From an uncultured Candidatus Saccharibacteria bacterium (lineage in GTDB: Bacteria > Patescibacteriota > Minisyncoccia > SW-4-49-11), in the NCBI GenBank assembly GCA_964633865.1, contig CAZWIJ010000002.1, positions 628 through 64,627 on the forward strand: 64,000 nt of DNA, written 5' to 3'. A model generated the notes under the pieces. That model saw nothing but the letters and a program-made list of their open reading frames with translations, was not told where the DNA came from and searched no databases. Positions within the stretch are counted from its first letter, which is position 1. Each line of letters starts with the position of its first letter. Shown here piece by piece: positions 2,039 through 31,512 of the stretch. Made by a program: the position numbers and the translations under genes.

Positions 2039-3478
2039 ATGTCACAAATTAACTCCATAACCGAACTCCATAAAGCTTATATAGATAAAGAAATTAAACC
2101 TTCTGAATTTATTTCAGATATTATCAATAAAATTGAAGAAAAAAATCCAAAACTAAATGCATATTTATCAGTATTTAAAGAAGAAGCTATAGAAAAATCT
2201 TTAATTTTAGATAAAAAAATTTCTAATAATCAAGATATATCTCTTTTGGAAGGAGTTCCTATTTCTATCAAAGATGCTATTTTAGTAGAAGGTCACAAAG
2301 TCACATCTTCTTCAAAAATTTTGGAAGATTATACTGCTGTTTATGATGCTACTGTTATCCGAAAACTAAAAGAAAAAGGTGTTATCTTGATGGGAAAAAC
2401 TAATCTTGATGAATTTGCTATGGGATCTTCTACAGAGAATTCTGCTTTTGGGCCAACCTTAAATCCAGTTGATGAGTCAAGAGTACCAGGAGGTTCATCT
2501 GGAGGTTCTGCCTCTAGTGTCAAAGCAGGATTATGTCTAGCTTCTCTTGGATCAGATACAGGAGGTTCTATAAGACAACCAGCTGCTCTTACCGGTATTG
2601 TCGGATTAAAGCCTACTTATGGTAGAGTTTCAAGATTTGGGTTGATAGCAATGGCATCTTCGCTAGATCAAATCGGACCTTTTACCAATAATATTTTGGA
2701 CTCTGCTTATATCCTAGAAGCAATTGAGGGAAAAGATTCAATGGATGCAACTTCTGTAGAATTAACTTTGGATCAAAAATTAAATTTTGACACCATTCAG
2801 AATAAATCTATACAAGGAATGACTATTGGATTACCAAAAGAATACTTTATTGATGGAATTAGTCCTGAGATAAAAGAGGCTATCAATAATACAATTGAGC
2901 AATATAAATCTTTGGGGGTTAATTTTAAAGAAATTTCTCTCCCCTACTCAAAATATGCAATTCCTACTTATTATATTCTTATGCCAGCCGAGGTAAGCAC
3001 AAATCTTGCTCGCTTTGATGGGATTAGATATGGATTATCTGAATTTGAAAAATCAAAAGATTTAAGAGATTTATATTTTGATAGTAGAACCAAGGGATTT
3101 GGTAAAGAATCTATGAGAAGAATTATGCTAGGATCTTATGTATTATCTAGCGGATATTATGATGCATATTATTCCAAAGCAAAAAAAATTCAATCTTTGA
3201 TCAAACAAGATTTTGATAAAGCATTTTCGGAAGTAGATGCTATCTTGACTCCGACTACACCAAACACAGCCTTCAAATTAGGTGAAAAAACTAATGATCC
3301 ATTAGCAATGTACTTGGAAGATATTTTTACGGTGGCTACTAATATTGCTGGTATTCCTGGTATTTCAATTCCAACTAAAACAAATTCAGGCCTACCGATT
3401 GGATTTCAGTTAATGACAAAACATTTTGATGAGAATACCCTACTTCAAATTGGACATAATATAGAAAAAATTTTATAA
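2039..3478 (+). CDS. gatA: Glu-tRNA(Gln) amidotransferase subunit A (amidase signature family)
   Basis: Amidase signature GGSSGGSASSV. KDAILVEGHKVTSSSKIL and GKTNLDEFAMGSSTENSAFGPT motifs. 479 aa. Confidence 0.9.
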   Translation: MSQINSITELHKAYIDKEIKPSEFISDIINKIEEKNPKLNAYLSVFKEEAIEKSLILDKKISNNQDISLLEGVPISIKDAILVEGHKVTSSSKILEDYTAVYDATVIRKLKEKGVILMGKTNLDEFAMGSSTENSAFGPTLNPVDESRVPGGSSGGSASSVKAGLCLASLGSDTGGSIRQPAALTGIVGLKPTYGRVSRFGLIAMASSLDQIGPFTNNILDSAYILEAIEGKDSMDATSVELTLDQKLNFDTIQNKSIQGMTIGLPKEYFIDGISPEIKEAINNTIEQYKSLGVNFKEISLPYSKYAIPTYYILMPAEVSTNLARFDGIRYGLSEFEKSKDLRDLYFDSRTKGFGKESMRRIMLGSYVLSSGYYDAYYSKAKKIQSLIKQDFDKAFSEVDAILTPTTPNTAFKLGEKTNDPLAMYLEDIFTVATNIAGIPGISIPTKTNSGLPIGFQLMTKHFDENTLLQIGHNIEKIL

Positions 3479-22524: not shown

Positions 22525-23838
22525 TTACTTTATCAAATCCTTATTTAAATATTTTTGTAAAATTTTTGGAACTCTAATATAACCTTCTTTTGTCTGATAA
22601 TTTTCCATAATAGCAATCAAAATTCTACCAATTGCAAAGACAGTAGCATCATTCATATGAGCAAATTCTCTATTTCCACTTTTATCTAAATATTGAGTTT
22701 TAAGCCTCCTTGACTGAAAATCTCCCATATAATCAGAAGTATGAGTTTCTCTATATTGATTTTGGCCAGGCATCCAAGTCTCTATATCAAGAGCTCTTAT
22801 ATCTGGATTTCCCATATCTCCTGTACATTTAAGGACCATCTGATATGGTAATTCTAATTGTTGGACTAAATATTCTTGAATAGCCACAATAAAATCTTGT
22901 TCCACAAAACCATTTTCTTTGGTTGTAAATGTCTCGATTTCTATCTTATCAAATTGATGAAGCCTCAAAATTCCCTTCATATCTTTACCATATGTTCCAG
23001 CTTCTCGCCTGAATGCTGTTGAATATCCTACATATCGTATTGGATTCTCTTTTATATTAATAAGCTCATCCATATGAAGAGGTCCTAATGTATGCTCAGC
23101 ACTACCAACCAACATAAGTCCATCAATAGTAGTTTGATACCGCTCATCCATCGGATGAAGTCTACCCATTCTATCCATAACTTCTGGTCTCATTAGAACA
23201 GGGGGAATTACAGGAATAAATGGAGTATCTGATACTTCTAAATTATTTTTTTGCATAATTTCTTTTAAAATTTTTTGATTAGTCAAAGTATCGAATACCA
23301 TTTGAACAATACTAAATTGTAATCTAACTAAATCACCCACAAGATAAGCAAATCTAGAACCAGAGATAACTGCAGATTTTTGGGTATTAATCAAATTCAA
23401 TTTCTCACCCAATTCCCAATGTTCCTTTGGGTCAAAATCAAATTGAGAAATTATTCCAACTTGTCTTAAAATTTTATTCTCAGTCTCATTCTTACCTATT
23501 GGAGTGTCTTCTGAGTAAAAATTTGGTACCTTTAACATGATATCAAGATATTCTTTATCTATAATGTCCAAATCTGACTCAAGCTTGTTTAAATTTTGTT
23601 TAATATCCTTACCTTTGTTTATCAAATCTATTTTTTCATCCTGAGCCAAATCTTTAATATTCTTCATTTGATCAGCAATTTGATTCTTATTTTTTCTTAA
23701 GACTTCAACCTGATTCAATAAATTTTTTCTCTTATCATAAATAGACAATAAATCATCAATAGAAATCTTACTATTCTTATTAATCAAAACTTGCTTCATA
23801 TAAGAGGCATTATTTTTGATAAATTCTATATCCAACAT
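22525..23838 (-). CDS. serS: Seryl-tRNA synthetase
   Basis: Class II motifs FRREAGTYGKDMKGILRLHQF and GSAEHTL. N-terminal coiled coil. Probable true start is MLDIEFIKNN at 23838, since the ORF-track start at 23877 adds 13 aa. Confidence 0.9.
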   Translation of the reverse strand: MLDIEFIKNNASYMKQVLINKNSKISIDDLLSIYDKRKNLLNQVEVLRKNKNQIADQMKNIKDLAQDEKIDLINKGKDIKQNLNKLESDLDIIDKEYLDIMLKVPNFYSEDTPIGKNETENKILRQVGIISQFDFDPKEHWELGEKLNLINTQKSAVISGSRFAYLVGDLVRLQFSIVQMVFDTLTNQKILKEIMQKNNLEVSDTPFIPVIPPVLMRPEVMDRMGRLHPMDERYQTTIDGLMLVGSAEHTLGPLHMDELINIKENPIRYVGYSTAFRREAGTYGKDMKGILRLHQFDKIEIETFTTKENGFVEQDFIVAIQEYLVQQLELPYQMVLKCTGDMGNPDIRALDIETWMPGQNQYRETHTSDYMGDFQSRRLKTQYLDKSGNREFAHMNDATVFAIGRILIAIMENYQTKEGYIRVPKILQKYLNKDLIK

Positions 23839-24067
23839 ACTAAAAAATTTTAAACTTTTATGATAATATATTAACATCTTAATCAGAAATTTACAAATAA
23901 AAATTATTATGTTTAAAAAATAATAAAAGCTAATTTGGTATATTATAAGTAAAATATCAAATTAGATATATAAATACTAAATTAAATTTATTATCGAAAT
24001 TACAAAAAAATTATTTATTTTGTAATTTTCTATTTTAACTCTAACTTAATTTAAAAAAAACTTACAA

Positions 24068-24156
24068 ACCCCTACCCCCTTCAAAAAAGGTGGATAAAAA
24101 CTAAAGACTCTTAAATACACCTTTTGAAGGGGTAAAAATCTCTGATTTTTGGGGTT
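24068..24156 (+). repeat. GC-rich structured repeat element, copy A (5' flank of toxin gene)
   Basis: Shares ccccc-ttcaaaaaagg.gga and the 26-bp block aaggggtaaaaatctctgatttttgg with copy B. Contains inverted repeat cccttcaaaa...ttttgaaggg. Confidence 0.5.
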
Positions 24157-24326
24157 GTAGAATTTTAATTTAAAGTATTATTAATTTGATTTTTGGGGTT
24201 GTATTATTTGAAATTTTACCAATCTTATTTTTGGGATTTTATATTATGGCGACAGGGTGTCGCCTTTTCTTCTTTGACCAAATCCGACTTTTTAAGTATA
24301 ATATACACAAGATTAATTTATTTCTT

Positions 24327-24728
24327 ATGCAAAACTTTATTAAAAATTTCCAAGATTGGTTTTCTTTGAAACCTAAATTAGATAATAACAATCATAAACC
24401 ACCTTTTGTGTCAGAAAGAGATCTCTGGTGGTGCCATCTTGGGGAAAATATTGGAACTGAAATTAGTGGTAAATCTAATAGATACACAAGACCTGTTATT
24501 ATTTTTAAGAAACTTTCTAATTATACTTATTTAGTTATACCTACTTCTACAAAAATCAAATCTGGTTCTTGGTTTATAAATTTTGTCTATAAAAATACAA
24601 ATATGATAGCTTGTCTCAACCAAATAAGAGTTATTGACTATCGTAGAATACAAAATCAAATTGGAAAATTAGATATAAATGATTTTAAATCTATTAAAAC
24701 TGGATTTAAAAAATTATACAATTTGTAA
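24327..24728 (+). CDS. MazF/PemK-family toxin-like protein
   Basis: RPVIIFKKLSNYTYLVIPTSTK...ACLNQIRVIDYRRI matches PemK/MazF core motifs (RP.vv......vv.PlTs......dQir.vD..Rl). Start placed at the internal ATG at 24327, because a hairpin plus T-run (ggcgacagggtgtcgcc ttttcttcttt at 24249-24276) lies inside the longer called ORF. Confidence 0.6.
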   Translation: MQNFIKNFQDWFSLKPKLDNNNHKPPFVSERDLWWCHLGENIGTEISGKSNRYTRPVIIFKKLSNYTYLVIPTSTKIKSGSWFINFVYKNTNMIACLNQIRVIDYRRIQNQIGKLDINDFKSIKTGFKKLYNL

Positions 24729-24850
24729 AAAAAAGCCTCCTATCTCTAGGAGGGACGCGACTAGTGTCGAATACAAAATTATTATACCACACCCTTTCTC
24801 CCCTGTCAAATTTAAAATTTTAAAGGATTCACACTCTCTCTATCCTTTTA

Positions 24851-24992
24851 CAACCCCCGTCTCTTACGAGACACCCCCCTTCAAAAAAGGGGGATGAGAT
24901 ACAACTGCTTTAAATTCCCCTCTTGAGGGGTGGCACCGAAGGTGACGGGGTGGATTTCCGAAAAGGGGTAAAAATCTCTGATTTTTGGAGTT
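24851..24992 (+). repeat. GC-rich structured repeat element, copy B (3' flank of toxin gene), with ~60-bp internal insertion
   Basis: Same terminal blocks as copy A. Extra hairpins cccctcttgagggg, caccgaaggtg and gtctcttacgagac. Locally much higher GC than surroundings. Confidence 0.5.
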
Positions 24993-25007
24993 TTAAATAA
25001 CAAAAAA

Positions 25008-25033
25008 GACAGATGATTTCTCATCCGTCTTAA
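25008..25033 (-). terminator. Terminator of pilin-like gene 25057-25668
   Basis: 11-bp stem with 1 mismatch (aagacagatga/tcatccgtctt). On the minus strand it is followed by TTTTTTG. A related copy sits downstream of the next paralog at ~25811-25836. Confidence 0.5.
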
Positions 25034-25056
25034 TCTGAAGATTTTATTTTTTAGTA

Positions 25057-25668
25057 TTATTGGAATGATCCAGTTTGAACTCCTCCAAATACGAATGTTA
25101 AGATTGTATTGGAAGCTGTGAATGCAAAGAATAAGATAACCATACCGATAACTGCATTGGTCATTCTCTTCTGAGCTGTTTCTGTCTTTCCTGCATCTCC
25201 TCCTGCTGTTGCATATTCGAATCCAGCGATCAAGAAGATACCGAATACGATAATTCCCACAAATCCTAAGAACCAGTTAATTACTGTTGATATAGTTCCT
25301 ATCAAATCTTGTGATTGATTAAGCTCTGTGCTTACTAATACTCCAACTTGTCTTGTATTATCTCCTGTTAGATTTACACCTGTACTTCCTGAAGCACCAC
25401 CTACACATCTATTAGCAGTACATATATCAGATGCACACTCCCCATTAGTTGAACAATTCTGATTAGCTGCATATCTACATTTTCCAGCTACACCTGCTGT
25501 TGCATTCTTACATGCAGTTCCTGCTGTACACGTATTACCAGTAGGGCCTCCACAGTCTGCCCCATAATCAACAACTGCAGCATAACCATAGTTAGGAGCT
25601 ACTAATACTAGAGCGAATAGGAACATTGAAGCTATTCCTAAGCTTTTTAATAAATTAAGTTTTTTCAT
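25057..25668 (-). CDS. Secreted Cys-rich protein ending in a VirB2/TrbC-like two-TM hairpin (pilin-like family)
   Basis: Sec signal peptide. Cys-rich insert CGGPTGNTCTAGTACKNA...CSTNGECASDIC. C-terminal INWFLGFVGIIVFGIFLIAGFEYATAGGDAGKTETAQKRMTNAVIGMVILFFAF. Confidence 0.55.
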   Translation of the reverse strand: MKKLNLLKSLGIASMFLFALVLVAPNYGYAAVVDYGADCGGPTGNTCTAGTACKNATAGVAGKCRYAANQNCSTNGECASDICTANRCVGGASGSTGVNLTGDNTRQVGVLVSTELNQSQDLIGTISTVINWFLGFVGIIVFGIFLIAGFEYATAGGDAGKTETAQKRMTNAVIGMVILFFAFTASNTILTFVFGGVQTGSFQ

Positions 25669-25867
25669 ATTATATAATATTAATTATAATAAATTACAGA
25701 AAGTACTATCTTCAGTTTGTACTTCTGATTCAGATTTTATCAAATTCTTTAATTTTTGTCAATTCAATTTGACCTGTGGATAATTAAAGTTTTTGTGGAT
25801 AAGTATATAAACAAAAAAGACAGATGATTTCTCACCTATCTTTTTTTGAAGATTTTATCTTTTAGTA

Positions 25868-26290
25868 TTATTGGAATGATCCTGTCTCAACTCCTCCAAA
25901 TACGAATGATAATATTGTATTAGAAGCTGTGAATGCAAAGAATAAGATAATCATACCTATTACAGCATTTATCATTCTCTTTTGAGCTGTTTCTGTCTTT
26001 CCTGCATCCCCTCCTGCTGTTGCATATTCAAATCCAGCAAGTAAGAAAATTAAGAATACGATAATTCCCACAAATCCTAAGAACCAATTAATTACAATCG
26101 AAATTGTTCCTATCAAATCTTGAGATTGATAAAGTTCTGTACTGACAAGTACTCCAACTTGTCTTGTATTGTCTGGCTGTAAATTTACACCTGATCCATC
26201 AGCATATCCATAACTAGGAGCTCCTAATAATATAGGAAATAGGAACATTATAGTTATTCCTAAATTTTTCAATAAATTAAATTTTTTCAT
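25868..26290 (-). CDS. Pilin-like two-TM hairpin protein (short paralog lacking Cys-rich insert)
   Basis: Signal peptide and C-terminal 100 aa ~90% identical to 25057-25668. The Cys-rich segment is replaced by DGSGVNLQPD. Confidence 0.55.
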   Translation of the reverse strand: MKKFNLLKNLGITIMFLFPILLGAPSYGYADGSGVNLQPDNTRQVGVLVSTELYQSQDLIGTISIVINWFLGFVGIIVFLIFLLAGFEYATAGGDAGKTETAQKRMINAVIGMIILFFAFTASNTILSFVFGGVETGSFQ

Positions 26291-26610
26291 ATTGTATAAT
26301 ATTAATTATAATAAGGCTTATAGATGTACTATCTTCAATTTGTACTTCTATATTATATCAGTTTTTTTAATTTTTGTCAATTTTTATTAACTTACAAATA
26401 AATCTTGTATTTAATTTTTATTTAAAAATATTTATTTTATAAGGAAACGTATCTTATTTTTTTGTCAATTTAAATTAACTTATGAACAAAAAGTATTTGA
26501 GAAAGATTTGAGTAAATTTAAAAATTTTTTGATTAAAAAATAATATTTAAGTATTATTTTCTGGTTTTTGATTTACAAATTTATTTTTTTGTGTATAATA
26601 AATCATAATA

Positions 26611-26683
26611 GGGTATATAGCTCAGTCGGTAGAGCAGAGGACTCTTAATCCTTTGGTCGGTGGTTCGAACCCACCTATGCCCA
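26611..26683 (+). tRNA. tRNA-Lys (anticodon CTT), no encoded CCA
   Basis: Acceptor GGGTATA/TATGCCC (one G-U). D-arm GCTCAGTCGGTAGAGC. Anticodon stem GAGGA/TCCTT, loop CTCTTAA. T-arm GGTGGTTCGAACCCACC. Discriminator A then CAA. Confidence 0.8.
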
Positions 26684-26771
26684 CAAATATTATTTATGTT
26701 TTAAAAAATAAAAAAATAAGTACTTTGTAGAATATACTTATTATTATATTTTATAATTTTTTAGTCATTTA

Positions 26772-27104
26772 CTAAACTTGGAAAACAAACCCTATAATTG
26801 CATTTGTGAGAACAAAGGCAAAGAATAAAATTAAGGCTCCTATCACTGTATTTGTCAATATCTTTACTGAAGACTCTGCTTGTCCTTGATTTCCTCCTGC
26901 TGTTAGATACATGAATCCTGCATAAATTATTAAAATAAATACTATTATTCCTATAAAACCTAGAGTCCAATTAATAGTATTCTGAATATAATCTAAAAGA
27001 GTGCCTTGTGCTACTCCGGTAACACCTGGGTCAGGAATTGCTCCTACTGGAGGAAGTGACTCTTGACCTACAGTTGATGCTAATAATTTTATTGTATTTT
27101 CCAT
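26772..27104 (-). CDS. Pilin-like two-TM hairpin protein (110 aa)
   Basis: IQNTINWTLGFIGIIVFILIIYAGFMYLTAGGNQGQAESSVKILTNTVIGALILFFAF, the same module as the neighbours. Confidence 0.5.
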   Translation of the reverse strand: MENTIKLLASTVGQESLPPVGAIPDPGVTGVAQGTLLDYIQNTINWTLGFIGIIVFILIIYAGFMYLTAGGNQGQAESSVKILTNTVIGALILFFAFVLTNAIIGFVFQV

Positions 27105-27108
27105 ATTA

Positions 27109-27588
27109 TTATACTGCTAATACAGCACTTATTACATAATTTGTTATTAAAAAAGCTCCTATCATCAAAACTAGACCTATTGTAGCATTACTTATACTAG
27201 ATAGAGATTGTTTTGCTTTATTACTATCATCACCTGCTGTCATATAATTAAATCCACTCATCAATACTAAACCAAAAAACACAGTACCCACAAGTCCTAA
27301 TGCCCATCTTATAATTTGAGCTATATAACCTATCAGAGTACCTTCTGTTCTGATACCTGGATTAACTCCTAAAAATTCTCCAAGACCATCTTGTACTGGA
27401 GTTTCTGAGTTAGAATTTCCACCACCATCTTCTGAGGTAGTATCAACACATGTAGAAGTATCTTCGTCACAAACTTTTGGGTCAACACATGAGGGATTAC
27501 AAACAGCATAAACAGAGTTTATATTTATTCCTAAACTACATATTGATAATAAAGTCAGAGTAAAAAATATTTTTTTAGATAAGTTCAT
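27109..27588 (-). CDS. Secreted Cys-rich protein ending in pilin-like two-TM hairpin (159 aa)
   Basis: Signal peptide. CNPSCVDPKVCDEDTSTCVD. IAQIIRWALGLVGTVFFGLVLMSGFNYMTAGDDSNKAKQSLSSISNATIGLVLMIGAF. Confidence 0.5.
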   Translation of the reverse strand: MNLSKKIFFTLTLLSICSLGININSVYAVCNPSCVDPKVCDEDTSTCVDTTSEDGGGNSNSETPVQDGLGEFLGVNPGIRTEGTLIGYIAQIIRWALGLVGTVFFGLVLMSGFNYMTAGDDSNKAKQSLSSISNATIGLVLMIGAFLITNYVISAVLAV

Positions 27589-29028: not shown

Positions 29029-31512
29029 TTATTCTTCTTCCCCCTCCATATCCTTGTCAGATATAGCTATTGAAGCCACTATATCATCTTTTGATAATCT
29101 CATAACTTTAACTCCTTGGGTATCTCTTCCTAGTGTAGGAATATCTTTTTTGATATTCACTTTTATAATATTACCACCTTTAGAAATAGCAATAACTTCA
29201 TCATTTGTTTTATTAACAACCCTTGCTCCAACAACTAACCCTGTTTTATCTGTTACTTTAGATACTCTTACTCCCATTCCTCCTCTATTTTGGACTTTAT
29301 AGTAATTTAATTTACTCTTTTTACCATAACCTTTTTCAGTCATAATCAAAAGCCAACCTTCTTCATCATTACTGTTGATTTTTTCCATACCAATAATCTC
29401 ATCTTCACCTTTTAGGGACATAGCTTTTACACCTCCTGTAGTTCTTCCCATTGCTCTTAAATCTAATTCTGCGAATCTAATTGCTTTTCCTAATTTAGTA
29501 AATATAAATACATCTGTTTTTTCACCATGAGAAATTGCATTTACAAGTTCATCATTTTCTTTTAGGTTAATCGCAATAATTCCACCTTTTCTAACATTAT
29601 CATAAACTGATTCTTCACTTTTTTTGATTGTAGCATTCTTAGTAACAATAGTTATATACTTTCCATCATTTTGCTCGGTTGGTAAAATAGATTTAATACT
29701 TTCTGTTTTACCCAATTCTAAGAAATTAACTATAGCTTGTCCTTTAGATATTCTTGATCCTTCTGGGATTTCATATGCCTTTAATTTCAAAACTCTCCCT
29801 GTATTAGTAAAGAATAATAATTTTGTATGTGTAGTAGTACTTAAGAAAATAGATACAAAATCATCATCTCTAGTCTTAACACCAGAGATTCCAACTCCAC
29901 CTCTTCTTTGAGATCTATATTCTTTGGGATCAACTCTTTTAATATAACCATCATTTGTCAAAATTATAATTGTAGGTTCATTTGGAATAAAGTCTATTTC
30001 CCTAAAATCATCTAAACTATGATCAAATACTTTAGTTTTTCTATCATCTCCATATACCTCAATCACTTCTCTCAAATCATTTTTAATTATATCTAAAATT
30101 CTTTGATCAGATGCTAAAATAGATTCCAATTCTTTAATTAATGCCATGAGTTCAGCTAACTCATAAAGAATCTTTTGTCTTTCCAAACCTGCCAAAGTTT
30201 GAAGTCTCATATCCAAAATAGCCTGAACTTGAATCAAACTAAACTCAAACCTCTTAATCAAATTTACTCTAGCTATCTCTTTTGTCTCAGAACCTCTAAT
30301 TATAGAAATTACTTCATCAATAAAATCTAATGCTTTTTTTAATCCCTCTAAGATATGAGCTCTATCTTTAGCTTGTTTTAATTCGAAAGCTGTCTTTCTT
30401 ACAATCACTTCTTTTCTATGAGCAATATAATATTCCAAAGCTTGTTTCAAAGACAAAGTTCTTGGCTCGATTCCATTTACTAGAGCTAACATATTTACAT
30501 GATAAGTCTTTTGTAAATCAGTTAACTTATAAAGTTTATTTAAGACCTTCTGTGGATAAGCATCTGGTTTTAACTCAATCACAACCCTTACACCATCTTT
30601 ATCTGATTCATCTCTCAAGTCTTTAATTCCATCTAATCTTTTGTCTCTTACCAAATCTGCCATCTTCTCTATCAAAGTAGCTTTATTAGTCTGATAAGTC
30701 ATTTCAGTAACTATAATATTAAAGCCTTTTTTCCCTCTCTCTACAATATCTGCTTTAGCTCTTGTAACTATAGGGCCTCTACCAGTAGAATAAACTTGTT
30801 GGATATTCTGAAAATTATAAATTTCTCCTCCAGTAGGAAAATCTGGACCTTTTACAAATTTTAATAATTCATCGACTGTGATATTAGGATTTTCAATAAT
30901 TGCTATTGTTGCATTACAAATTTCTCGAAGATTATGAGGAGGAATATTTGTAGCCATACCAACAGCAATACCAGTAACTCCATTAATTAAAAGTTGTGGG
31001 ATTCTTGAAGGCAATACTGTAGGCTCTGTCTCACTACCATCATAATTAGGAATGAAATTAACTGTATCTTTCTCAATATCAACAAGCATCTCTCTTGCTA
31101 TCTTGTCCATCTTTGACTCTGTATACCTCATAGCAGCCGCTGAGTCTCCATCCATAGAACCGAAGTTACCTTGACCTTTTACCAAAGTATATCTCAAAGA
31201 AAAATCTTGAGCCATTCTAACCAAAGAATCATAAACAGCAGTATCCCCATGAGGATGATATTTACCAAGCACTTCTCCAACTATGGTAGCTGATTTTCTA
31301 AATTTAGCTTCAGGTTTTAACCCCAATTTATGCATAGCATAAAGAATTCTTCTATGAACTGGCTTTAACCCGTCTCTAACATCAGGTAAAGCTCTATCAA
31401 CAATCACACTCATAGAATAATCAAGATAAGATCTCTCCATCTCTAATACAATATCTGTCTCTTCGATATAACCTAATTTTTCTATAAATTCTCTTTTATT
31501 TGAATTTTCCAT
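29029..31512 (-). CDS. gyrA: DNA gyrase subunit A
   Basis: [20 protein letters not shown]. Catalytic Tyr region AAMRYTE. GyrA-box QRRGGVG in the C-terminal beta-pinwheel. Confidence 0.9.

Follow-up and report, generated by a model that had tools for sequence, protein, structure and literature searches.

What holds in check a MazF/PemK-like toxin gene that has no recognizable antitoxin beside it? The gene in question lies between serS and a gene for a type IV secretion system (T4SS)-type pilin in a 64,000-nucleotide (nt) stretch of contig CAZWIJ010000002.1 from an uncultured Candidatus Saccharibacteria bacterium (the window), whose GC content of 28.3% is that of an AT-rich, Patescibacteria-type genome. 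An initial annotation described it as a toxin gene preceded by a hairpin and bracketed by two copies of a GC-rich repeat, and offered those repeats as a possible source of a type III-like RNA antitoxin. It missed the partner of the toxin, which is a minus-strand small RNA (sRNA) gene at 24727-24809 that is conserved with the toxin across phyla. Judged by the co-inheritance of the two genes, the sRNA is most likely the antitoxin, and on balance we think it probable that the locus is a toxin-antitoxin module in which a MazF-fold ribonuclease (RNase) is paired with a convergent antitoxin RNA of ~47 nt that would act primarily as a cis-antisense, type I-like regulator.

The toxin open reading frame (ORF) was correctly located at the outset, but its length is 402 nt (133 amino acids (aa), with the stop codon at 24726-24728) rather than the 403 bp then given. 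Its assignment to the PemK/MazF fold is confirmed by a match to the Pfam family PemK_toxin (PF02452) of 34.2 bits, against a cut-off of 23.1 (E = 3.1e-8), and by an AlphaFold2 model built with 42 homologs (predicted local distance difference test score (pLDDT), 81.5), in which an N-terminal helix (residues 2-19) is followed by a β-barrel and a C-terminal helix. The top 50 matches of this model in a Foldseek search of the PDB are all MazF-family toxins (probability 1.0, template modeling (TM)-scores 0.59-0.80) and include Staphylococcus aureus and Escherichia coli MazF, Bacillus subtilis YdcE, B. subtilis MazF-RNA, Bacillus anthracis MoxT, and Mycobacterium tuberculosis MazF; the fold search was used in place of a PDB sequence search, which returned only spurious matches to viral polymerases. 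In an hhalign alignment with B. subtilis MazF, the pair R55-P56, which is invariant in the toxin family, falls on R25-P26, and S74/T75 falls on T48; R25 and T48 are the catalytic positions of the B. subtilis enzyme. The N-terminal helix is characteristic of the family, with F8 and W11 invariant and K15 nearly invariant. From its sequence and modeled fold, the 133-aa protein is very probably an active MazF-family endoribonuclease, for which RNA cleavage and toxicity are predicted. No PADLOC model matches the toxin, and NCBIfam gives only a weak MazF match that is far under the cut-off. The earlier statement that no small antitoxin ORF accompanies the gene is borne out by a wider survey: in the window, the small ORFs next to the toxin gene contain no Pfam domain; among about 75 homologous loci, the toxin has no conserved small-ORF neighbor other than extra toxin copies; and no gene for a MazE, PemI, or AbrB/ribbon-helix-helix (RHH)-type protein antitoxin is present upstream or downstream of it.

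The sRNA gene converges on the toxin gene from the opposite strand and has its own promoter, a perfect sigma-70 one (see the table). The predicted RNA consists of a 5′ GUAUU leader, hairpin 1 (24769-24758), the linker CGUC, hairpin 2 (24753-24736), and a U-run that extends up to the toxin stop codon; hairpin 2, with its GC-rich 7-bp stem and the U-run, is predicted to be an intrinsic terminator. On the plus strand no T-run follows either hairpin, whereas the minus strand has one. A covariance model (model R1), built from an alignment of 72 sRNA copies, has a sole significant match in the window, at 24718-24779 on the minus strand (50.7 bits, E = 4e-9). Rfam holds no counterpart: a gathering-threshold scan of the 64 kb found two tRNAs only, with neither the sRNA nor the repeats matched, and a scan of 23850-25100 relaxed up to E = 10 gave noise only, so that the check for ToxI-like RNAs around the toxin, which had been put forward with the initial annotation, produced no match at either setting.

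Homologs of the toxin were sought in one genome per GTDB species, which gave 372 stretches encoding toxin relatives (gene copies confirmed by tblastn), mainly from Patescibacteria (Paceibacteria, Saccharibacteria, Peribacteria, and Gracilibacteria), with a few from Alphaproteobacteria and Limisphaerales and often with several copies per genome; at E <= 1e-10 the subfamily comprises 1,750 clusters at 50% identity. The two-hairpin element was found in nearly all of the 80 homologous loci that were fetched. These toxins stand in differing neighborhoods (beside glycosyltransferases, beside a Bro-N gene, between ribonucleotide reductase subunits) with the same element 3′ of the stop codon, and compensatory changes in hairpin 1 are already visible among homologs from differing neighborhoods. 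Of 88 homologous loci, 86 have a match to model R1 that abuts the 3′ end of the toxin gene. Standard pairs are formed by 91.9% of the cells in the 72-copy alignment, against 42-60% in slid controls; 12 of 12 base pairs change on both sides, with 137 compensatory cells, and none of 500 shuffles reaches these values of pairing and compensation. When the pairs are read on the minus strand, G-U (38) outnumbers A-C (24), a moderately decisive indication in favor of that strand. The unpaired UU before hairpin 1 is invariant, the CG after it is present in 71 of 72 copies, and the loop of hairpin 1 is conserved across phyla. In 64 of the 72 loci a promoter agrees with the consensus at 8 or more of 12 positions, and in 63 of these 64 the −10 box and hairpin 1 are exactly 11 nt apart. 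In the loci inspected the seventh nucleotide after the −10 box is a purine, usually following a pyrimidine, which corresponds to a classical start site and thereby defines a 5-nt leader, RYWUU. Nucleotide identity of the sRNA core tracks toxin identity, from 0.59 to 0.86; that is, the sRNA diverges with the toxin. The sRNA gene, with its promoter, fixed start geometry, covarying hairpins, and terminator, is co-inherited with the toxin family across Patescibacteria, some Alphaproteobacteria, and Limisphaerales.

The module also occurs in multiple copies and in compact settings. Tandem modules, in which two toxins that are 33% identical each have their own convergent sRNA, were seen in homologous loci L001 (3001-4130), L013, L014, L020, and L034, and a Peribacteria genome (CAYHXO01; L031, L033, L075, and L080) has four or more module copies. 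The presence of multiple copies per genome suggests diversification into non-cross-reacting pairs. In L006, L007, and L008 (3001-3480), the module lies within a ribonucleotide reductase cluster and starts 6 nt after the small-subunit gene.

The association was also examined from the side of the RNA. When metagenomes were scanned with a 24-nt core of the sRNA, 64 loci emerged: a toxin gene is convergent at the sRNA 3′ end in 56, four end at a contig edge, and four are orphan sRNA genes, which means that the toxin was recovered in 56 of 60 evaluable loci. The four orphan loci (L107/L136, L108, and L132) represent three distinct sequences in which promoter and hairpins are kept, and the one in L132 ends in a clear remnant of a toxin C terminus, "...RRVLEGFKNLYCFI*". 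An orphan sRNA copy is found as well beside the toxin of a close relative (L159, 3504-3576), and many Campylobacter coli plasmids have a toxin pseudogene with the hairpin element retained, as seen in L163 (~1300-1345). The sRNA therefore survives alone, whereas a toxin gene that lacks the sRNA is hardly ever encountered; such an imbalance is what one would expect if the sRNA were an antitoxin. In dozens of C. coli and Campylobacter jejuni plasmids, tblastn matches the toxin in two pieces, as in L163, and these cases were likewise taken to be toxin pseudogenes. A scan of viral contigs with a 17-nt core of the sRNA gave four matches with no toxin near any of them, the two that were inspected lying in GC-rich coding DNA, and a scan of the viral contigs with a 24-mer of the repeats gave none.

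Distant homologs of the toxin (30-36% identity) are encoded on plasmids of Helicobacter suis (L160) and Nitratiruptor (L162) and in prophage CJIE4 of C. jejuni (L161), and stand alone, although the NCBI annotation reads "type II ... PemK/MazF family toxin"; 3′ of each of the three, the minus strand carries an analogous element with two hairpins. Their contexts are between phage terminase and portal genes (CJIE4-3, L161 1480-1990) or directly after a plasmid relaxase gene. CJIE4 encodes no MazE, yet its MazF protein was detected in growing C. jejuni (Clark et al. 2014, PMC3995785). A further solitary PemK/MazF protein, pVir0047 (30634-31038 on plasmid pVir of C. jejuni 81-176), aligns with the toxin family in hhalign with a probability of 99.3% (E = 3.8e-20, 120 columns, 30% identity) and shares the N-terminal helix of the subfamily. 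The pVir entries retrieved from Dugar et al. (2013, PMC3656092) include a minus-strand transcription start at 31119, with by far the strongest signal among them, and CJpv3, a 77-nt sRNA that runs from 31119 to 31043 and is described there as "detected on Northern blot." CJpv3 is convergent with pVir0047, ends 5 nt after the stop codon of the latter (31036-31038), and finishes in two hairpins. In addition, passages in two papers (PMC7826846 and PMC10470494, citing Shen et al. 2016) name CjrA on pVir as the antisense RNA antitoxin of a type I system, cjrA/cjpT. It is probable that a relative of the module that has been studied experimentally exists on pVir.

As the plus strand has no terminator before the sRNA gene, the toxin mRNA should read through that gene, and the read-through would make the sRNA perfectly complementary to the 3′ end of the mRNA. 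In the mechanism that we propose, the resulting duplex would lower the stability or expression of the toxin mRNA, and the RNase would be released when the short-lived sRNA is no longer made, on loss of the module, transcription shut-off, or phage attack. This type I-like action is favored by the geometry of the overlap, which Patescibacteria-type loci conserve and which reappears in the four homologs from Campylobacterota that were examined, by the lack of a plus-strand terminator before the sRNA gene, and by the classification of the probable Campylobacter relative as type I. Several considerations weigh against it. That the toxin transcript extends over the sRNA gene is one of our inferences; CjrA is probably, but not certainly, CJpv3, and the same holds for CjpT and pVir0047; and model R1 has no match at the loci of pVir, CJIE4, H. 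suis, and Nitratiruptor, with which the module has position, strand, and architecture in common but no detectable sequence similarity. Pairing of the sRNA with the translation-initiation region of the toxin is no better for cognate than for non-cognate partners (−16.4 versus −15.5 ± 6.3 kcal/mol; median rank of the cognate, 29.5 of 72). The unpaired UU and CG, which are invariant or nearly so, are features that a pure antisense RNA does not need, and they hint at recognition by a protein; the nearly invariant length of the leader, the co-divergence of sRNA and toxin, and the N-terminal helix peculiar to the family also tell against pure antisense action. Finally, the presence of CJIE4 MazF protein in growing cells fits neutralization of the protein better than repression of its synthesis.

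It should be noted that several of these observations favor the main rival of the antisense mechanism, a type III-like one in which the sRNA would bind the MazF-fold toxin directly and block its RNA-binding groove, with the RYWUU leader or the linker as a possible pseudo-substrate; the convergent position would then merely keep both genes linked. The unpaired nucleotides and the hairpin 1 loop conserved across phyla, the rigid 5-nt leader, an sRNA that diverges in step with the toxin, and the N-terminal helix of the family, in which F8 and W11 never vary and K15 hardly does, all speak for this rival; RNA-inhibited toxins of the ToxN type share the MazF/Kid fold (PMC5086642), and the homologous CJIE4 MazF is present in healthy cells without MazE (PMC3995785). 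We nevertheless consider it doubtful as the principal mode of action, because a strictly conserved position over the toxin 3′ end, common among cis-antisense antitoxins, would be needless for a protein-binding RNA, because there is neither a repeat array nor a sign of processing, and because the probable Campylobacter relative is cited, in the passages mentioned above, as type I; direct binding may contribute beside antisense action. Both hairpins can form on the plus strand too, and the G-U comparison is moderately decisive only, which would suit a locus with no antitoxin at all, whose hairpins serve as a terminator or 3′ stabilizer of the toxin mRNA and whose product, an RNase without a partner, does no harm or is kept under tight repression. 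This is improbable given that the T-run follows the hairpins on the minus strand and not on the plus strand, that the minus-strand promoter is conserved with fixed geometry and is retained by orphan sRNA copies, and that an abundant, Northern-verified sRNA occupies the equivalent position on pVir (PMC3656092). The original proposal that a ToxI-like RNA antitoxin is encoded by the flanking GC-rich repeats, or alternatively by the weak tandem repeats and terminator upstream of the toxin, is the least credible of all and can hardly be maintained. The layout of repeats (24143-24241), terminator (24248-24264), and toxin superficially resembles type III, and the two flanking repeats, A and B, both fold stably. 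However, conservation of the repeats does not extend to the regions upstream of homologous toxins, some of which have no intergenic space there, leaving no room for an upstream RNA antitoxin at the ribonucleotide reductase locus; a relative whose SerS is 92% identical lacks the repeats at its toxin locus; the same repeats bracket a DUF1016 gene in that relative (L158), where the palindrome of the upstream terminator occurs without any toxin; the toxin's own promoter lies downstream of the terminator; and Rfam gives no ToxI-like match. What survives of the initial suggestion is therefore the RNA antitoxin itself, likely in the form of the convergent sRNA, and not its origin in the repeats.

Features of the toxin-sRNA locus and its surroundings (positions in the window)
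Feature	Position	Strand	Basis
serS	22525-23877	minus	Pfam
Variable cassette, from serS to the pilin-gene terminator, ~966 bp	24035-25000		Synteny with L157 and L158
Repeat A, GC-rich mosaic palindromic	24052-24159	plus	Fold z = -3.25; aligned with three other family copies
Three same-strand copies of ATTTTTGGRRTTKTA (24145, 24189, 24227), spacing ~44 nt	24145-24241	plus	Weak tandem array
Palindrome GGCGAC-N5-GTCGCC (GGCGACAGGGTGTCGCC, 24248-24264) and T-run	24248-24274	plus	Single copy in window
Toxin promoter TTGACC-17-TATAAT, predicted transcription start ~24309	24274-24302	plus	11/12 consensus matches
PemK/MazF-family endoribonuclease toxin (predicted), 133 aa, extra N-terminal helix	24327-24728	plus	Pfam, AlphaFold2, Foldseek
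Convergent sRNA, ~47 nt, putative RNA antitoxin	24774-24727	minus	Fold, covariation, model R1
sRNA promoter TTGACA-17-TGnTATAAT, extended -10	24809-24781	minus	12/12 consensus match
Repeat B, repeat A family with two extra internal GC-rich hairpin modules; ends at right cassette border	24846-24995	plus	Shared 26-mer, fold, alignment
Terminator of 203-aa pilin gene, conserved flank abutting cassette	25006-25031	minus	Same sequence abuts L158 DUF1016 cassette
T4SS-type pilin gene, 203 aa	25057-25668	minus	Pfam

The description of the locus as a small cassette in the interval between serS and the pilin gene proved accurate. The window is collinear with L157, whose SerS is 97% identical, and with L158 (92%) up to position 24034 and again from ~25001, and instead of the toxin module L157 (279-995) and L158 (4134-4856) carry a gene for a protein of 238 or 240 aa that has no Pfam domain and its own TTGACA promoter. 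Since close relatives have a different gene between conserved flanks, the segment is a replaceable cassette. The 238-aa gene of L157 was also considered as a homolog of a 240-aa gene beside the L001 toxins; no homology was found. L158 keeps a block of ~60 nt (aaattttaccaatct..ggcgac..gtcgcc) that in the window lies upstream of the toxin (~24209-24266). The hairpin and T-run reported upstream of the toxin are indeed present, and the palindrome, which stands ahead of the toxin promoter as a terminator-like insulator, is also a recurring interspersed element; it was seen near toxin modules in L001, L005, L009, L013, L016, and L020 and twice in toxin-free L158. The block of hairpin plus promoter upstream of the toxin recurs in homologous locus L001, and a similar hairpin and −10 region are present in L005/L009.

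Repeats A and B mark the edges of the cassette and are separate from the toxin-sRNA mechanism. They flank the gene and share an identical 26-mer, as had been observed: AAGGGGTAAAAATCTCTGATTTTTGG has exactly two copies in the 64 kb (24127-24152 and 24963-24988), where shuffles predict 0, and a 21-mer, CCCCCTTCAAAAAAGG(T/G)GGAT, is present at 24075 and 24875 with 95% identity. Repeat A contains a long hairpin (CCCCCTTCAAAAAAGGTG...CACCTTTTGAAGGGG) and a small one (AAAAATC-TCT-GATTTTT), enclosed by CCCC/GGGG, and repeat B holds the most GC-rich 60 nt of the window (57% against the average of 28%), above the tRNA genes; in the repeat family as a whole, conserved ends pair around a modular, variable middle. 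For the array upstream of the toxin, Tandem Repeats Finder gives a 22-nt period, with 61% matches over 24143-24211; a fourth copy of its unit (24981-24995) ends repeat B, and there is none in the 64 kb outside the cassette. This weak tandem layout is not conserved in toxin homologs, nor are their upstream regions generally, and GC-rich hairpin repeats are limited to a subgroup of Paceibacteria; in the L158 relative, the toxin locus contains the sRNA together with an orphan sRNA copy and lacks repeats of this kind. A DUF1016/YhcG_C gene of L158, by contrast, is bracketed by one A-like and one B-like member of the repeat family, both oriented in the same direction (1628-1775 and 2945-3231, minus strand); the gene is located between two pilin genes, at a position where the window has an empty site (25669-25867), and a GGCGAC-N6-GTCGCC palindrome adjoins this cassette. 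The toxin and DUF1016 cassettes both abut near-identical pilin-gene terminators (25006-25031 and ~25817-25842 in the window), and these terminators appear to be landing sites of repeat-bordered cassettes. Repeats A and B are thus members of a family of interspersed mosaic palindromes, which in this lineage lie at the borders of exchangeable cassettes of one gene each, beside pilin-gene terminators. The region of the window at 25057-27588 encodes four T4SS-type pilin paralogs (203, 140, 110, and 159 aa), interrupted by a tRNA gene (26611-26683), and the terminators of at least the first two of these are nearly identical. A sub-module of repeat B, CCCCTCTTGAGGGG-TGGCACC..GGTGAC-GGGGTGGA (24913-24955), recurs in either orientation at <=2 kb from toxin homologs in several Paceibacteria genomes (L009, L010, L013, L016, L020, and L022), and its inner hairpin shows a compensatory change of C-G to T-A.

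It is routine to annotate solitary MazF/PemK genes as type II toxins whose antitoxin is "missing," but the constant partner of the subfamily described here is a small-RNA gene, and as Rfam does not contain this sRNA and gene callers do not see it, such modules are systematically mis-described. The sRNA constitutes a well-supported new family for the Patescibacteria, organisms that have tiny genomes and few known regulatory RNAs, and it offers an account of MazF genes that stand as orphans on plasmids and prophages of Campylobacter and Helicobacter. The solitary MazF loci of H. suis, Nitratiruptor, and CJIE4 are tractable for experiments, and C. jejuni pVir or CJIE4 in particular provides a system in which control of a MazF-fold toxin at the level of the mRNA can be distinguished from control at the level of the protein. 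Should the sRNA neutralize the MazF-fold RNase by binding the protein and not the mRNA, which we regard as rather unlikely, it would represent a new class of RNA antitoxin, a single-copy convergent RNA directed against a PF02452 toxin; this would provide an evolutionary link between type II MazF and type III ToxN, and thousands of genes in Patescibacteria and Campylobacterota annotated as "type II PemK/MazF family toxin" would be mis-typed. The flanking repeats, for their part, point to a mechanism of cassette exchange in Patescibacteria that is not yet described. No description of the module was found in the literature on MazF/PemK with an RNA antitoxin, on toxin-antitoxin systems of Patescibacteria, or on the "pemK motif."

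The repeats resemble integron attC sites, repetitive extragenic palindromic sequences and bacterial interspersed mosaic elements (REP/BIME), and miniature inverted-repeat transposable elements (MITEs) in having paired conserved ends, a variable middle, and direct copies around single cargo genes that vary between relatives. No GTTRRRY/RYYYAAC core of the attC kind was seen by inspection; no integrase or REP-associated tyrosine transposase (RAYT) was identified, although no recombinase search was made, and the cassettes lie at separate loci rather than in an integron array.

The toxin-sRNA module fails the definitions of type II and type III systems and departs from classical type I. With type II MazEF/PemIK it shares the fold of the toxin and the positions of the catalytic Arg and Ser/Thr, but it has no adjacent protein antitoxin, and its toxin has the extra N-terminal helix. 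Type I systems with convergent antisense RNAs that overlap at the 3′ end include txpA/RatA and bsrG/SR4 of B. subtilis and par Fst/RNA II; toxins of the TxpA, BsrG, and Fst type are small hydrophobic membrane peptides, and SymE and RalR are non-peptide exceptions among type I toxins. The module is like these systems in that a convergent sRNA, encoded in cis where the toxin gene ends, has a strong promoter and a terminator of its own, in the lack of a protein antitoxin, and in a presumed overlap of the transcripts; it is unlike the classical members in that its toxin is a 133-aa soluble RNase with a predicted MazF fold and its sRNA is much shorter and conserved in sequence across phyla. In type III systems the antitoxins are tandem repeats located upstream in the same operon, with a terminator before the toxin, and are processed by the toxin and fold into pseudoknots; these systems are often mobile and tied to abortive infection (Goeders et al. 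2016, PMC5086642). The likeness to ToxIN, CptIN, and TenpIN consists in a putative RNA antitoxin for an endoribonuclease of a MazF/Kid-related fold (PMC5086642), whereas the RNA of the window is a single-copy, convergent, independently transcribed one with two hairpins, and its toxin belongs to PF02452 and not to ToxN/AbiQ, CptN, or TenpN. The pVir system, CjrA/CjpT if it is CJpv3/pVir0047, is found in a host of another phylum and on a conjugative plasmid, whereas the window module is a chromosomal cassette, and CJpv3 differs from the sRNA of the window in its length of 77 nt, an extra 5′ hairpin, and the absence of detectable sequence similarity, but the two have in common a homologous solitary toxin, a convergent sRNA that ends near the toxin stop codon, and two terminal hairpins.

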